Below are positions 22,164 through 28,884 of a DNA stretch of 28,884 bases, one piece after another (the first letter of the stretch is position 1; each line of letters opens with the position of its first letter). Source of the DNA: Feifaniaceae bacterium (GTDB taxonomy: Bacteria > Bacillota > Clostridia > Oscillospirales > Feifaniaceae); NCBI GenBank assembly GCA_045602805.1, contig JAZSCG010000083.1, positions 1 to 28,884 on the forward strand. Reading direction: 5' to 3'. The notes beneath the pieces are model-generated. The model saw only the letters and a program-made list of their open reading frames with translations. It did no database searches and was not told the DNA's origin. A program made the position numbers and the translations under genes.

Positions 22164-23006
22164 ATGTACGAAATCGCAAATAAAAAAATTTTAAATCCAA
22201 CCGTTACTATGATGGATATTGCGGCTCCGCTTGTTGCAAAAAAAGCACAGGCGGGTCAATTTATTATTCTACGCACTGATGATAACGGTGAAAGAATACC
22301 ACTCACAGTTGCAGGAACAGATAAGGAAAACGGAACCGTTAAAATTATATTCCAGACTGTCGGCGCAACAACAGAAAAACTCTCACATATGAATGTGGGG
22401 GATAGTCTTGCTGATTTTGCAGGCCCTCTGGGTTGCCCTACTCAGACAAATGGTGTAAAAAAAGCCTGCATAGTAGGCGGTGGCGTAGGCTGTGCCATAG
22501 CACTTCCCGTTGCACAAAAACTTCACAACGAAGGTTGTGAGGTACATTCGATAATAGGCTTCAGAAGTAAGGAACTTCTTATTCTTGAAGAAGAATTCAA
22601 GAATGCTTCTGACAAACTTACTATTATGACAGATGACGGCTCATACGGTGAAAAAGGTCTTGTTACAGAGCCTCTCAGGAAGATGCTTGAAGATGGCGAG
22701 ACGTTTGATGAAATTTTCGTTATCGGACCTTTGATAATGATGAAATTCGTTGTTGAAACAGTAAGGCCTTATAACATTAAAACTACAGTTTCAATGAATC
22801 CTGTTATGATAGATGGTACCGGAATGTGTGGCGGTTGCCGTCTCACTGTCGGCGGAAAGGTTAAATTTGCCTGTGTAGACGGTCCTGATTTCAATGGTTT
22901 TGAAGTGGATTTTGACGAGGCAATTATGAGAAACACTACTTATTTTGAGTTTGAGCGACATGCTCATGAAGAAACATGCAATCTCTTTAATAAGGAGGTG
23001 CAGTAA
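22164..23006 (+). CDS. nfnA: NfnA/SudB-type FAD/[2Fe-2S] subunit of electron-bifurcating transhydrogenase
   Basis: AQAGQFIILR, GERIPLT, VGGGVG, DGSYGEKG, IGPLIMM, DGTGMCGGCR...CVDGPDF. Confidence 0.9.
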   Translation: MYEIANKKILNPTVTMMDIAAPLVAKKAQAGQFIILRTDDNGERIPLTVAGTDKENGTVKIIFQTVGATTEKLSHMNVGDSLADFAGPLGCPTQTNGVKKACIVGGGVGCAIALPVAQKLHNEGCEVHSIIGFRSKELLILEEEFKNASDKLTIMTDDGSYGEKGLVTEPLRKMLEDGETFDEIFVIGPLIMMKFVVETVRPYNIKTTVSMNPVMIDGTGMCGGCRLTVGGKVKFACVDGPDFNGFEVDFDEAIMRNTTYFEFERHAHEETCNLFNKEVQ

Positions 23007-23007
23007 T

Positions 23008-24420
23008 ATGCCTAATATGAGACTTGATAAAAATCCTATGCCCTCTCAGGAAGCATCCGTTCGTGCAAAAAACTTCCTTGAGGTTACATTGGGTTATACT
23101 CAGGAAGCGGCACTTGATGAAGCAGCTCGCTGTCTCGGTTGTAAGAATATGCCTTGTGTTTCGGGTTGTCCCGTAAATATTCATATTCCGGAGTTTATCA
23201 AAAAAATAAATGAGCTTGATTTTGAGGGAGCATATCAGGTTATTGCTAAATCGTCAAATCTGCCTGCAGTATGCGGAAGAGTATGTCCTCAAGAATCGCA
23301 GTGTGAAGCGAAGTGTGTCCGTGGAATAAAGGGAGAACCCGTAGGAATCGGAAGGCTTGAAAGATTTGTTGCTGACTGGCATAACGAGAATTGTACAGAT
23401 GAGGTTGTTAAACCTTTGTCTAACGGACATAAAGTTGCTGTTGTCGGCTCCGGTCCTTCCGGTCTTACATGTGCAGGTGATCTCGCTAAAAAGGGATACG
23501 AAGTAACAATTTTTGAAGCACTTCATAAGGCAGGGGGAGTTCTTGTATACGGCATACCTGAATTCAGACTTCCTAAATCTATTGTTCAAAAAGAAATTGA
23601 TAACTTAAAAAAACTTGGCGTCAATATTCAGACAAATGTCATTATTGGAAAAACAATCACTGTAGATGAGCTCTTTGATGACGGTTATGAAGCAGTTTAT
23701 ATCGGTTCAGGTGCCGGTCTGCCTAATTTTATGGGTATTCCCGGTGAATCCTTTAAGGGTGTTTTTTCTGCAAATGAATTTCTTACAAGAAACAATCTCA
23801 TGAAAGCATATGAAAACAACTCGGATACTCCTGTGATGAAAGGCAGAACGGTTGCTGTAGTAGGTGGCGGAAATGTTGCAATGGATGCAGCAAGAACAGC
23901 AAAACGTCTCGGCGCTGAAAATGTCTATGTGATTTATCGTCGTTCTATGGAGGAACTTCCTGCAAGAGCTGAGGAAGTGGAGCATGCTCAGGAAGAGGGT
24001 ATTATTTTCAAGGTGTTGACTAATCCTACAAAAATTTTGGGCTATAACAATCCTGATGACAGACGTGATCCCAAGAACGGTTTTGTAACGGGAATAGAAT
24101 GTCTTAAAATGGAACTTGGCGAACCTGACGAACGTGGCAGAAGAAGGCCTGTTGAAATAAAAGGTTCTGAATTTGTTATAGATCTTGATGTTGTGATTAT
24201 GTCGATAGGAACATGTCCTAATCCGCTTATTAAAGACACTACGGAAGGTCTTGAAGTAAATGGGCGTGGCGGAATAATTGTTGATGACGGTTGCAAGACT
24301 TCGAAAGAAGCAGTTTATGCAGGCGGAGATGCTGTGACAGGTGCGGCAACGGTAATTCTTGCTATGGGTGCAGGTAAGACAGCTGCAAAGTCAATAGATG
24401 AGTATTTGATGAATAAATAA
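23008..24420 (+). CDS. nfnB: NfnB/SudA-type FAD/[4Fe-4S] subunit (often annotated as glutamate synthase beta-like)
   Basis: RCLGCKNMPCVSGCPV, CGRVCPQESQCEAKC, GSGPSG, GGGNVAMDAAR, YRRS, GGDAVTGAATVILAMGAG; adjacent to nfnA. Confidence 0.9.
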   Translation: MPNMRLDKNPMPSQEASVRAKNFLEVTLGYTQEAALDEAARCLGCKNMPCVSGCPVNIHIPEFIKKINELDFEGAYQVIAKSSNLPAVCGRVCPQESQCEAKCVRGIKGEPVGIGRLERFVADWHNENCTDEVVKPLSNGHKVAVVGSGPSGLTCAGDLAKKGYEVTIFEALHKAGGVLVYGIPEFRLPKSIVQKEIDNLKKLGVNIQTNVIIGKTITVDELFDDGYEAVYIGSGAGLPNFMGIPGESFKGVFSANEFLTRNNLMKAYENNSDTPVMKGRTVAVVGGGNVAMDAARTAKRLGAENVYVIYRRSMEELPARAEEVEHAQEEGIIFKVLTNPTKILGYNNPDDRRDPKNGFVTGIECLKMELGEPDERGRRRPVEIKGSEFVIDLDVVIMSIGTCPNPLIKDTTEGLEVNGRGGIIVDDGCKTSKEAVYAGGDAVTGAATVILAMGAGKTAAKSIDEYLMNK

Positions 24421-24426
24421 TTGATA

Positions 24427-24455
24427 AAGGGGAGATATTAGCTGTATCTTCCCTT
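24427..24455 (+). terminator. Hairpin after nfnB
   Basis: 11-bp stem AAGGGGAGATA / TATCTTCCCTT; weak U-tract. Confidence 0.65.
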
Positions 24456-24462
24456 ATTCTCA

Positions 24463-24491
24463 TTGACAAATTTTCGTAATAATGGTATAAT
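24463..24491 (+). promoter_or_regulatory. Consensus sigma-A promoter of the leader-metNIQ transcript
   Basis: TTGACA-17 nt-TATAAT with extended TG; predicted start near 24498. Confidence 0.88.
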
Positions 24492-24524
24492 CCGTAAAAA
24501 CAAATCCCGGAAGGAGGCATAGAA

Positions 24525-24638
24525 ATGAACATTTATTTTTGTAGTCTTTTGCGTGAAAATTTCCGCTGCGGTCGAATGCTTGGCTCCCGAGTAAATTATT
24601 CGAGAGTTTTTGATGCTATGCCTGCTTATAGGATATAG
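24525..24638 (+). CDS. Candidate 37-aa leader peptide MNIYFCSLLRENFRCGRMLGSRVNYSRVFDAMPAYRI
   Basis: SD AAGGAGG (24511-24517) lies 7 nt before ATG; the frame is open to TAG 24636-24638. It is too short for the ORF track. Confidence 0.6.
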   Translation: MNIYFCSLLRENFRCGRMLGSRVNYSRVFDAMPAYRI

Positions 24639-24663
24639 CATTGTTATTTTCGTATAATTTGTT

Positions 24664-24697
24664 CGGGAGTTGTCATATCTTGATGACCCCGTTTTTT
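24664..24697 (+). terminator. Conditional (attenuator) terminator before metN
   Basis: CGGG-[AGTT bulge]-GTCAT-ATCTTG-ATGAC-CCCG-TTTTTT; its 5' arm overlaps a 25-bp alternative helix. Confidence 0.7.
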
Positions 24698-24712
24698 ATT
24701 AAGGAGCTTAAT

Positions 24713-25714
24713 ATGATCCAACTTCAACATGTAACCAAAATATTCAACACCAAAGACAGAAGTGTTGAAGCTGTAAAAGACATCTCGTTGGATATTGAAA
24801 AAGGTGACATATTTGGTATCATCGGTCTTTCGGGTGCAGGCAAATCCACACTTGTAAGATGTATCAATTTTCTTGAGAAGCCAACGAGTGGCAGTGTTAT
24901 TTTTGAGGGCGTAGACCTTGCTTCATTAAATCACTCGGCGTTGCTTGAAAAGAGACGTTCTATGTCAATGATATTTCAGGGATTTAATCTGCTGTCCCAG
25001 AGAACTGCTCTCAAAAATGTATGCTTTCCTCTGGAAATTGCCGGTGTGCCAAAGAAAACTGCAACAGAAAAGGCGAGAAGTTTGCTTAAACTTGTCGGCC
25101 TTGAGGACAGAGAAAATGCATATCCCTCGCAGTTGTCGGGTGGGCAGAAACAGAGGGTCGCTATCGCCAGAGCATTGGCATCCGATCCGCAAGTTTTACT
25201 CTGTGATGAAGCTACAAGTGCCCTGGACCCCACAACAACTACGGCAATCCTTGAACTTTTAAAGAGAATTAACCGTGATTTAGGTGTCACGATAATAGTA
25301 ATAACACACGAAATGAAGGTCGTTGAACAAATCTGTAATAAGGTTGCGGTCCTTGACAACGGTGAGCTTGTTGAAACGGGCTATGTGAAAGATGTATTTA
25401 CTTCACCCAAAACCGCAAAAGCAAAAGAACTGATTTTACCCAAGGGAAAATCAGTTAAAAAGATGCAGGGCGGAAAAGTTATAAGAATTGTTTTTGACGG
25501 ACAGTCGGCAAGTGAACCTGTTATTTCAAATCTTACGATAGAATGTCAGACTGCCGTAAATATTCTTCAGGCTGATACAAAAGCAATAGAAGAAAAAGCA
25601 TACGGTGAAATGCTTATTGAACTTCCGTTGGACGAAACTTCATCAGCAAGAGTGCTGGGATATCTAAAAGACAGAAAAATACATTTTGAGGAGGTAACCG
25701 AAGATGTTAAATAA
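24713..25714 (+). CDS. metN: Methionine ABC transporter ATP-binding subunit
   Basis: GLSGAGKS, LSGGQKQRVAIARAL, LLCDEATSALDP, ITHEM, C-terminal NIL domain; SD AAGGAG. Confidence 0.95.
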   Translation: MIQLQHVTKIFNTKDRSVEAVKDISLDIEKGDIFGIIGLSGAGKSTLVRCINFLEKPTSGSVIFEGVDLASLNHSALLEKRRSMSMIFQGFNLLSQRTALKNVCFPLEIAGVPKKTATEKARSLLKLVGLEDRENAYPSQLSGGQKQRVAIARALASDPQVLLCDEATSALDPTTTTAILELLKRINRDLGVTIIVITHEMKVVEQICNKVAVLDNGELVETGYVKDVFTSPKTAKAKELILPKGKSVKKMQGGKVIRIVFDGQSASEPVISNLTIECQTAVNILQADTKAIEEKAYGEMLIELPLDETSSARVLGYLKDRKIHFEEVTEDVK

Positions 25715-26369
25715 TGCACTTGTGGATATGCTTATTAACGGCATCATTGAGACGCTTTATATGGTACTTCTTTCTACAGGAATTTCATATGCGATAGGTA
25801 TTCCAGTCGGTGTATTGCTTTATATAACAGATGATAACGGTATATGTAAGAATAAACCTGTAAATCTCGTACTTGGTTTCGTTGTTAATTTGTTAAGATC
25901 AATACCTTTTATTATACTTCTTGTCGCAATAATTCCGTTTACACGTTTTGTGGTAGGTACTTCCATAGGCTCAACGGCAACAATTGTTCCGCTTGTTGTA
26001 TCAGCTGCACCATTTGTTGCAAGAATGGTAGAATCATCATTAAAAGAAGTTGATTTTGGTGTGATTGAAGCTGCAGAATCAATGGGGGCTACACCGTGGG
26101 AGATCATTACAAAAGTTCTTTTGCCGGAATCAAAGCCTTCTCTCATTGTAGGAAGTGCTATAGCTATAACAACTATCCTTGGCTACTCTGCTATGGCAGG
26201 TTTCGTCGGCGGCGGCGGCCTTGGTACAATTGCCATAAACTACGGTTATTACAGATATGATGACAGAATAATGCTCATAACAGTTGTTTTACTTGTTATT
26301 GTTGTTCAGCTGTTCCAGATGATTGGTATGAAAATTGCATCAAAAACAGACAAACGTATTAAAAACTAA
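25704..26369 (+). CDS. metI: Methionine ABC transporter permease
   Basis: ETLYMV, RSIPFIIL, APFVARMVE, GVIEAAESMGA, GGGGLG, YGYYRY. Confidence 0.95.
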   Translation: MLNNALVDMLINGIIETLYMVLLSTGISYAIGIPVGVLLYITDDNGICKNKPVNLVLGFVVNLLRSIPFIILLVAIIPFTRFVVGTSIGSTATIVPLVVSAAPFVARMVESSLKEVDFGVIEAAESMGATPWEIITKVLLPESKPSLIVGSAIAITTILGYSAMAGFVGGGGLGTIAINYGYYRYDDRIMLITVVLLVIVVQLFQMIGMKIASKTDKRIKN

Positions 26370-26392
26370 TTTTTATAAAGGAGAAAACCATC

Positions 26393-27199
26393 ATGAAAAA
26401 ACTTATTTCAATCCTTCTCGCACTTACTATTGTATTTTCATTTGCTGCTTGTGGCAGCAACGAAAATGCCGACAATGTAATCAAAGTAGGTGCAAGCATT
26501 ACACCCCATGCAGAGATACTTGCCGTAATCAAGGATGAACTTGCTGCCCAGGGATACACACTTGAAGTTGTAGAGTACAACGACTATGTACTTCCCAACA
26601 CAGCAACAGAAAGCGGCGATCTTGACGCTAACTACTTCCAGCATACACCTTATCTTGATGATTTTAATGCGAATAACGGAACTCACCTTGTTCCCGTTGC
26701 ATCGGTTCATTACGAGCCTTTCGGCATCTATGCAGGTAAAACTGCTGCTATAACTGACCTTAAGGAAGGTGCAGTTGTTGCCGTTCCCAACGATACAACA
26801 AATGAAGCAAGAGCACTTCTTCTTCTTGAAGCACAGGGACTTATCACACTCAAAGAGGGTGCAGGTCTTACAGCAACTAAGGTAGATATCGTCGAAAATC
26901 CCTTAAATCTTGATATCAAAGAAATCGAAGCTGCACAGCTTGCTCGTTCACTTGCTGATGTAGACATTGCAGTTATCAACGGTAACTATGCGATTGAAGG
27001 CGGTCTTAAGGTAAGCGATGCTATAGCCGTTGAAGCGGCTGATTCAGAAGCTGCACAGACCTATGCAAATATCCTTGTTGTAAAAGAAGGCAACGAAGAA
27101 CAGGAAAAGATTAAGGCGCTCGTTAATGCTCTTACAAGTGAAACTGTAAAAACTTATATTGACAGCACTTATGACGGTGCAGTTGTTGCAATGTTCTAA
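26393..27199 (+). CDS. metQ: MetQ/NlpA lipoprotein substrate-binding subunit
   Basis: Lipobox FAAC, TPHAEIL, DYVLPN, DANYFQHTPYL, PNDTTNEARAL, INGNYA. Confidence 0.94.
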   Translation: MKKLISILLALTIVFSFAACGSNENADNVIKVGASITPHAEILAVIKDELAAQGYTLEVVEYNDYVLPNTATESGDLDANYFQHTPYLDDFNANNGTHLVPVASVHYEPFGIYAGKTAAITDLKEGAVVAVPNDTTNEARALLLLEAQGLITLKEGAGLTATKVDIVENPLNLDIKEIEAAQLARSLADVDIAVINGNYAIEGGLKVSDAIAVEAADSEAAQTYANILVVKEGNEEQEKIKALVNALTSETVKTYIDSTYDGAVVAMF

Positions 27200-27294: not shown

Positions 27295-28884
27295 ATGGAT
27301 CATTTCGTTTTACATTCTGAATATAAGCCTTCGGGTGATCAGCCGCAGGCAATAGAACAACTTGCAAAGGGTGTGCTTGATGGTAACAGAGAGCAGACTC
27401 TTCTCGGTGTTACTGGAAGCGGAAAAACATTTACTATGGCAAATATTATCCAAAAGGTAAACAAGCCGACACTCATTCTTGCACATAATAAAACACTTGC
27501 CGCACAGCTTTGCTCGGAGTTTCGTGAGTTTTTTCCCGAAAATGCGGTGGAGTATTTTGTTTCCTATTATGACTACTATCAGCCTGAATCATACGTTCCG
27601 CAGACTGATCTGTATATTGAAAAAGACTCGTCGATAAACGATGATATAGATAAACTGCGCCACTGTGCTACGTCTTCGCTTTTGGATCGCCGAGACGTCA
27701 TTGTCGTATCAAGTGTATCTTGTATTTATACACTTGGTGATCCCGAAGAATACAGAAATCTCGTTCTCATATTAACTGAGGGTATGCAAAAAGACCGTGA
27801 TGACGTCATAAAACGTCTTGTGGACATCCAATATGAGAGAAACGACATAAACTTTGTGAGAAATAAATTCCGTGTCAGGGGCGATGTTTTAGAGATATTC
27901 CCGGCAGGCTCTACCGAAGAAATATACAGAATAGAATTTTTCGGTGATGAAATAGACAGGATAACAAAACTTAACGTTCTAACGGGAGAAGTGATTTCAA
28001 GGGAAAAATTTATAGAAATTTATCCTGCATCCCACTACGTTGTTGCTCACGATAAGATGGAAAAAGCCATAGCGGAAATCGAAAGGGAACTTGAGGAAAG
28101 AATAAAATTTTTCAAGGATAACGAAAAACCTCTGGAAGCACAGAGAATAGAACAGAGAACAAGATATGATATAGAGATGCTGCGTGAAATCGGTTTTTGC
28201 AGCGGTATTGAGAATTATTCAAGAATAATATCGGGCAGGAAACCCGGATCAACGCCGTATACATTACTTGACTTCTTTCCCGATGATTTTCTTTTATTTG
28301 TTGATGAATCACATGTAACACTTCCTCAGGTGAGAGGAATGTACGGAGGTGACCATTCAAGAAAGAAAAATCTTATAGACTACGGATTCAGATTACCTTC
28401 AGCGTATGATAACAGACCTCTGAATTTTGGTGAGTTTGAGAAAAAAATAAATCAGGTTATCTATGTAAGTGCCACACCGGGTGAATATGAGCAGGGAAGA
28501 AGCAGTGTAGTCGCTGAACAGGTTATACGTCCTACAGGATTGCTTGATCCGATTGTTGAAGTACGTAAAACAGACGGTCAGATAGATGACCTGATGAATG
28601 AAATCCGCATAAGAATAAGCAAAGGTGAAAGAGTGCTCGTTACAACACTTACCAAAAAGATGGCGGAGAACCTTACAGCATATTTTGAAAATGCCGATAT
28701 AAATGTACGTTATATGCATCACGATGTTGATACTATGGAGAGAATGGAGATAGTTCGCGATCTCAGACTCGGAAAAACAGATGTTCTTATCGGAATTAAT
28801 CTTCTCCGTGAAGGACTCGATATACCAGAAGTTTCACTTGTTGCAATTTTAGATGCTGATAAGGAAGGTTTTTTACGTTCTTCG
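27295..28884 (+). CDS. uvrB: Excinuclease ABC subunit B, 3' part outside the window
   Basis: Translated by hand: [98 protein letters not shown]; runs off the edge. Confidence 0.98.

Follow-up and report, generated by a model that had tools for sequence, protein, structure and literature searches.

Organization of the leader of the metNIQ operon

In the window, the whole stretch of 28,884 nucleotides that was analysed, a leader of 290 nt lies between the gene of a GltD-like oxidoreductase (end at 24420) and metN (ATG at 24713). The operon behind it encodes proteins with the domains ABC_tran and NIL (MetN), BPD_transp_1 (MetI) and NlpA lipoprotein (MetQ). The leader is a single copy in its genome (1.14 Mb, 91% complete), which ruled out a repeat or mobile element. 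Upstream, an overlapping gene pair (22164-24420) encodes a DHODB_Fe-S_bind/NAD_binding_1 protein and a Fer4_20/Pyr_redox_2 protein (GltD- or NfnB-like), and has its own terminator-like hairpin at 24427-24455; at the other end, a uvrB-like gene (27295-28884; UvrB_inter and helicase domains) extends beyond the window. Among RNA runs, a single one contained as much as 4% of the words sampled for the window.

We confirmed the consensus promoter, the strong Shine-Dalgarno (SD) sequence and the upstream open reading frame (uORF) with three Met and two Cys codons that the first-pass annotation had described (Table 1), and found the promoter arrangement in same-genus leaders too. The Met codons are numbers 1, 18 and 32, and the Cys codons are 6 and 15. 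The minimum-energy fold of 24495-24715 (-70.5 kcal/mol, z = -5.8; 0 of 200 shuffles equally stable) is dominated by a long hairpin, in which segments A and B pair as the antiterminator proposed earlier (helix 2:3) and enclose an apical hairpin with the uORF stop codon, as had also been read from the sequence. This apical hairpin and the U-rich stretch after it are possibly an RNA polymerase pause site. The terminator claimed just before the metN SD (helix 3:4) was found as well, with its stem, CGGG-A-GUUGUC / GAUGAC-CCCG, at 24665-24692 and U6 at 24693-98; a U-G pair of this stem is U-A in relatives. Segment B overlaps the terminator 5' arm at 24665-71, and the antiterminator A:B competes with the intrinsic terminator B:C for it.

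Table 1. Features of the metNIQ leader and operon in window coordinates
Feature	Position	Strand	Details
Promoter, sigma-70 type	24463-24491	+	TTGACA-17 nt-TATAAT, TG ahead of -10; 12/12 matches
uORF Shine-Dalgarno GGAAGGAGG	24509-24517	+	7 nt upstream of ATG 24525
Leader uORF, 37 codons	24525-24638	+	TAG stop 24636-38
Family motif LLRENFRCGRM, codons 8-18	24546-24578	+	match to NFRxGR-M family; Cys15 24567-69, Arg17 (CGA) 24573-75, Met18 24576-78
Antiterminator 5' strand (segment A)	24582-24606	+	fold and covariation
Apical hairpin with uORF stop codon, U-rich stretch after	24612-24642	+	fold; ends approximate
Antiterminator 3' strand (segment B)	24647-24671	+	fold and covariation
Intrinsic terminator	24665-24698	+	10-bp stem, one bulged A, 7-nt loop, U6
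Regulated operon metNIQ	24713-27199	+	metN 24713-25714, metI 25704-26369, metQ 26393-27199

Conservation and covariation of the RNA helices

For the analysis of covariation, 42 window-type leaders were aligned. The results showed that 91% of the cells of the A:B core helix are paired and that five pairs are changed on both sides. The covariation of A:B was 0.266, compared to 0.188±0.011 in shuffles (0 of 500 as high), and slid-partner controls in the same 42 leaders were paired to at most 53%. Cognate A:B duplexes were on average 7 kcal/mol better than swapped duplexes, and the additional hairpin within the A:B loop was paired to 91% in the 42 leaders. The distance from Met18 to the start of segment A is 8 nt in all relatives examined; in the window its core, CUCCCGAG (24584-91), begins 8 nt after the A of AUG18. 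In contrast to A:B, the helix 1:2 suggested in the first-pass annotation (24572-24583 with 24587-24603) can be drawn in the window sequence but is not conserved, as its pairing (54.1% of cells) is no higher than the mean of the shuffles, 267 of 500 of which pair at least as well.

Among the matches listed, a terminator was found in 144 of 182 distinct leaders. In the window the automatic terminator finder chose the apical hairpin, and the true terminator was set by hand for the masked folds described below. We also folded the RNA as it is before the terminator 3' arm exists, for 133 leaders among the matches listed; in 72-76% of them the terminator 5' arm paired with positions +10 to +14 after the AUG18 A.

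The uORF encodes a member of a conserved peptide family

Two same-genus genomes carry the leader at 82-83% identity. Their uORFs have kept 37 codons, the first 23 of which differ by about seven synonymous third-base changes, and out of the non-start Met and Cys codons of the window uORF only Cys15 and Met18 are kept within the genus. Using a DNA pattern for ENFRCGRM, we found the same peptide core in other Clostridia families of very different base composition, with LL[R/H] in front, inside a short ORF and before metY or metN; four matches to this first pattern (L015 and L017-L019) lie inside long ORFs and were rejected as chance. A wider DNA pattern returned at least 119 genome loci and at least 120 metagenome loci, and the two scans gave at least 182 distinct copies of the family pattern M-x6-LL[R/H]xN[F/Y]R[C/F/N]GR-M. 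The window uORF fits this pattern, with its start 7 codons before LL and LL[RH]xN[FY]R[CFN]GRM at codons 8-18.

Among the matches listed, the start codon (ATG, GTG or TTG) lies exactly 7 codons ahead of LL in 242 of 244, an SD is present in 181 of the 182 distinct members, and all synonymous forms are used at codons 8-10 and 12-16 of the distinct copies. Residue 5 of the family copies among these matches is Phe, Trp or Leu, and residue 19 is variable. The synonymous changes, the fixed start register and the SD indicate that the uORF is evidently translated. Positions 8, 9, 12 and 14-18 were fixed by the search pattern, which makes their invariance in that set partly circular. Profile searches without fixed positions found relatives with Phe or Asn at position 15 and Val at position 9, and CGA-AUG was kept; three of the profile-search matches (L280, L285 and L286) lie inside long ORFs and are due to chance. 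We rejected Cys15 as a universal sensor, because the relatives L282, L283 and L284 have Phe or Asn there and retain CGA-AUG.

Only about 30 family proteins have already been called in databases, none of them named, and searches of Pfam and NCBIfam with the peptide gave no match and no model for the family; its uORFs are mostly absent from annotation. Its hosts include Faecalibacterium, Gemmiger formicilis ATCC 27749, Anaerotruncus colihominis DSM 17241, Oscillibacter valericigenes, Dysosmobacter, Agathobaculum, Butyricicoccus and Acutalibacteraceae, and several MAGs carry two copies each.

A CGA-AUG codon pair and Cys/Met-rich tails

In the window, Arg17 is encoded by CGA directly before AUG18 (CGAATG at 24573-78). 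We found CGA at this position in all 8 true matches to a pattern allowing CGN, and in all 13 matches to a pattern allowing MGN in 401 genomes of the window's order. Many uORFs carry extra Arg-Met pairs, above all those of the Faecalibacterium type, which end with RMCxRM-stop. Among the matches listed, the Arg codons before these later Met codons, which the pattern does not fix, are CGA in 126 cases, CGC in two and CGT in one, and the other Arg codons of the family uORFs are CGC (71), CGG (57), CGT (50), AGA (35), CGA (20) and AGG (19). In the window's genome CGA accounts for 4.7% of Arg codons, and the Arg-Met pairs of long genes mostly use AGA or CGT. A total of 29 tRNA genes were detected in this genome, with no tRNA-Arg reading CGA (ACG or UCG anticodon), an absence that in an incomplete MAG says nothing yet on CGA decoding.

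The uORF tails contain 9% Cys and 7% Met (family copies among the matches listed). In Faecalibacterium-type leaders, Cys and Met codons make up at most 2% at codons 20-29, and then codon 30 is Cys in 81%, codon 38 Met in 81%, codon 39 Cys in 76% and codon 42 Met in 76%; the window uORF has no Cys or Met codon at codons 19-29. In three Faecalibacterium-type leaders (L021, L022 and L011), the conserved codons for Leu-Pro-Ser, UGCCCUCC, which lie about 32 codons from the uORF start, are complementary to the SD region of the same uORF, GGAGGGCA. This complementarity could shut off further initiation, and it stands outside the models proposed below.

The leaders form a sulfur-amino-acid regulon

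We analyzed the genes downstream of 159 distinct leaders among the matches listed: a Cys/Met PLP enzyme (metY-like) follows 126 of them, and metNIQ follows 8. The remaining contexts are MTHFR with MetH (metF-metH), SBP_bac_11, NMT1-type and SBP_bac_3 ABC transporters, DUF1847, a PF03601 transporter and an M20 peptidase. These results indicate that the NFRxGR-M family leaders are a sulfur-amino-acid regulon, and together with the conservation of the uORF they support the earlier suggestion of a leader-peptide attenuator for sulfur amino acids. One family member with a lengthened uORF of 53 codons lies before cbiD, a gene of cobalamin synthesis (L168:2150-3343); it may have decayed, or it may connect the family with the B12-dependent MetH.

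Short members of 18-25 codons have no terminator before metY (the short terminator-less members are L042, L073, L120, L129, L040, L059, L112, L115, L236 and L282-L284). Some of them stop directly after Met18, mostly with UGA, and others have Cys-rich tails such as CSCCPCC. Anti-SD pairing in these members was rejected, as the duplexes were no better than shuffles (z from -2.4 to +1.4).

In metatranscriptome contigs from animal guts, the leader copy of Anaerotruncus colihominis and its metY are transcribed. In one run the depth of a leader-only contig was 4.7 compared to 2.6 in the gene, a comparison in which contigs cannot show 3' ends.

Known riboswitches and the T-box of sister genera

The first-pass annotation had placed the attenuator where an S-box or T-box would be expected. 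No match to Rfam was found in the whole window at the gathering score, and a search of the leader with E up to 10 gave no SAM or T-box match, only chance microRNA-type matches to the long hairpin. The same Rfam tools detected an S-box before metK and T-boxes in sister genera. The former is the only SAM-I riboswitch of the genome (72.4 bits; L257:1501-1599(-), which is G000:C150:13684-13782) and is directly downstream of a sigma-70 gene. The latter precede metN in three sister-genus genomes of the same family (75.5-87.6 bits, E 2e-18 to 3e-15; L273:1849-2134(-), L275:854-1121(+) and L276:649-920(+)) and fall just below the Rfam gathering score for T-boxes, 93 bits, so that default annotation would miss them. 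Their specifier, read by eye, looks like AUG.

Judged from these sequences, the metNIQ leader appears to stand in function for the Met T-box that sister genera have before metN. The Met T-box (RF00230) and SAM-I (RF00162) resemble it in being terminator/antiterminator switches at the same metNIQ position and with the same job. However, they sense tRNA or SAM bound to the RNA, whereas sensing in the metNIQ leader would use the translating ribosome, and the leader matches neither covariance model.

Modelled ribosome position and the choice between antiterminator and terminator

To model the ribosome, we masked 25 nt around each P-site codon and refolded the RNA. In the window the terminator formed only with the P site on codons 17/18-28, with a fraction of 0.64 at codon 17, 0.91 at codon 18 and 1.0 at codons 21-28, and the antiterminator won with the P site at codon 16 or before, at codon 29 or after, at the stop codon, or with no ribosome. 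In 68 window-type leaders the terminator fraction was about 0.33 up to codon 16, 0.55 at codon 17, 0.76 at codon 18, about 0.88 at codons 19-27 and 0.51 at the stop. Because the masked folds flip there, the CGA17-AUG18 step directly before A is the decisive ribosome location in this model. In Faecalibacterium-type leaders the terminator was favoured at every ribosome position, and equilibrium folds do not decide in which direction the switch is regulated.

The uORF runs 20 codons beyond A, and its stop (24636) lies about 45 nt past the core of segment A, so that a terminating ribosome would leave A unmasked. The trp/his-type 1:2/2:3/3:4 layout that had been proposed is not supported: helices 2:3 and 3:4 stood, but the 1:2 helix did not, the Met and Cys codons do not form a run, a ribosome at the stop does not mask A, and it is the peptide sequence that is conserved.

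Proposed mechanism and alternative readings

We propose, with a probability of roughly 0.6, that the metNIQ leader is a translation-dependent transcription attenuator, most likely triggered by a shortage of Met-tRNA (and, at codon 15, of Cys-tRNA), in which the position of the ribosome on the uORF would decide whether A pairs with B. For the starvation trigger taken by itself, Met-tRNA shortage plus Cys-tRNA at codon 15, we put the odds at about even. When Met-tRNA is short, the ribosome would be held at CGA17-AUG18, where its A site, on AUG, stays empty. From this place immediately before A it would allow A:B to form, and metNIQ would be transcribed. With ample Met, ribosomes would advance onto A and the terminator would form. 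The invariant nascent peptide and the rare CGA in the P site are predicted to slow the decoding of AUG18, which would make this step sensitive to the supply of Met-tRNA.

Starvation stalling is in line with the repetition of CGA-AUG, with tails rich in Cys and Met and with a T-box as the device replaced. It also agrees with codon placement: in the Faecalibacterium type, Cys and Met are scarce at codons 20-29, positions at which a stalled ribosome would cover A, and frequent from codon 30 on, and the window uORF has neither at codons 19-29. Several observations are in tension with it. With AUG18 in the A site, the front edge of the ribosome is at about +9 to +12, so part of the A core (+8 to +14) may be covered, and the masked folds are intermediate at that step (terminator 0.55-0.64). 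In the window both the free RNA and a ribosome at the stop favour the antiterminator; for transcription to terminate in cells replete with Met, a ribosome must therefore occupy codons 18-28 with exact timing. Moreover, starvation sensing in its classical form leaves the strong conservation of the peptide unexplained, and the short terminator-less members lack significant anti-SD pairing.

The conservation of the peptide leads to a reading that we consider unlikely but worth setting out, namely metabolite-dependent arrest. With an abundance of Met, SAM or a related compound, the nascent chain of 18 residues would arrest the ribosome once Met18 is in the P site. Parked there, the ribosome would cover A, so that the terminator forms and metNIQ is off; without the ligand it would run on and A:B would form. 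As with TnaC or SpeFL, it is the amino-acid sequence of the peptide that is conserved, and its N-terminal part has a fixed length. Position 19 is variable, and some members have a TnaC-like layout in which a stop codon, mostly UGA, directly follows Met18. The masked folds yield the terminator solely when a ribosome occupies codons 18-28, and RNA without a ribosome reads through, which makes a persistent block on A the simplest route to termination. However, the terminator-less members would then need a stall that represses, whereas the leader-ORF stalls without terminators known to us induce. The CGA-AUG pair also recurs in tails that lack the remaining motif, the tails rich in Cys and Met codons resemble codon sensing, the device replaced, a T-box, is a sensor of tRNA charging, and the genome already has a SAM-sensing S-box. 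It is doubtful that the nascent 18-residue peptide is a bacterial Met or SAM sensor in the ribosome exit tunnel that represses transcription; if true, it would reverse the logic of TnaC and SpeFL and be a bacterial counterpart of the plant CGS1 arrest.

Arrest could also be constitutive and be combined with hungry codons upstream, which we regard as improbable. Once finished, the motif would in every case leave the ribosome standing on A, Met18 being in the P site, and any fully translated leader would terminate. A shortage of Cys-tRNA (codon 15), Met-tRNA (codon 18) or initiator Met-tRNA would keep ribosomes short of this point and A free. The conserved peptide, its Met codon and the physiological sign would then share one explanation, which agrees with the masked folds of the window, which switch from antiterminator with the P site on codon 16 to terminator on codon 18. 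On the other hand, Cys15 is Phe or Asn in some relatives (L282, L283 and L284), the on and off states would differ by a single codon of ribosome position, and the Cys and Met codons far downstream in the tails get no role.

A switch without ribosome sensing, with a small molecule or an RNA-binding protein as the factor acting on the leader RNA (at CGAAUG repeats, for example) and with a uORF that is incidental or encodes a small protein acting elsewhere, would suit the recurrence of CGAAUG(UG) as an RNA word and the highly structured leader, but is very improbable given the synonymous variation of the motif codons, the exact start register (242 of 244) and SD (181 of 182) among the matches listed, and a motif region without conserved pairing or an Rfam family.

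Relation to known leader-peptide systems and biological meaning

Leader-peptide attenuation is considered rare in Firmicutes. As a translation-dependent attenuator, the metNIQ leader resembles the classical attenuators of Proteobacteria (trpL, hisL, pheL, thrL, leuL and ilvL) in its short translated leader ORF, in a terminator with an overlapping antiterminator where the ribosome position chooses the helix, and in the control of genes for the amino acid whose codons sit in the leader. Unlike these attenuators, which have tandem regulatory codons, it has no codon run, with only one Cys and one Met conserved; its own peptide sequence is conserved, and the sensor looks like the CGA-AUG pair. The classical systems also have a conserved 1:2 helix and a ribosome at the stop that masks segment 2, and the metNIQ leader has neither.

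Among nascent peptides, TnaC senses tryptophan and SpeFL ornithine, and both act via Rho and induce their operons; in plants the MTO1 region of CGS1 senses S-adenosylmethionine, giving negative feedback on methionine synthesis. The NFRxGR-M peptide, whose arrest is putative, shares with them a conserved nascent chain with an invariant core near the peptidyl-transferase end, and some members end at the motif followed by UGA as in TnaC, but there is no sequence similarity to TnaC, SpeFL or CGS1.

In mycobacteria, leaderless polycysteine sORFs (the Cys 'ribulon') precede sulfur-metabolism operons (bioRxiv 10.1101/834739). There too, amino-acid supply is reported by ribosome stalling and many copies make up a ribosome-directed regulon, but these sORFs are leaderless, carry runs of Cys codons, unmask a ribosome-binding site and have no conserved motif (10.1101/834739), whereas the metNIQ leader has an SD, a fixed peptide motif, Met after CGA and an intrinsic terminator. 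In the Firmicutes arrest-peptide leaders MsrDL and MefAL, which are macrolide sensors, a ribosome stalled on a short leader peptide likewise decides the fate of a Rho-independent terminator, and it does so by obstructing the terminator itself (PMC10314930). In the metNIQ leader the ribosome would instead meet the antiterminator strand, and the proposed signal is nutritional. Literature searches that covered the motif and methionine leader or arrest peptides gave no description of the NFRxGR-M family, nor any published methionine leader-peptide attenuator.

The family is widespread in gut genera of human and animal origin (Faecalibacterium, Gemmiger, Oscillibacter, Dysosmobacter, Agathobaculum and Anaerotruncus), and the cultured carriers Anaerotruncus colihominis DSM 17241 and Gemmiger formicilis ATCC 27749 permit direct tests. 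An invariant peptide together with a rare-codon pair, CGA-AUG, that is likewise invariant suggests a way of sensing that textbook attenuators do not have, either a codon made 'hungry' by its context or a metabolite-sensing arrest peptide. In these bacteria the family appears to coordinate methionine synthesis, methionine uptake and sulfur transport.
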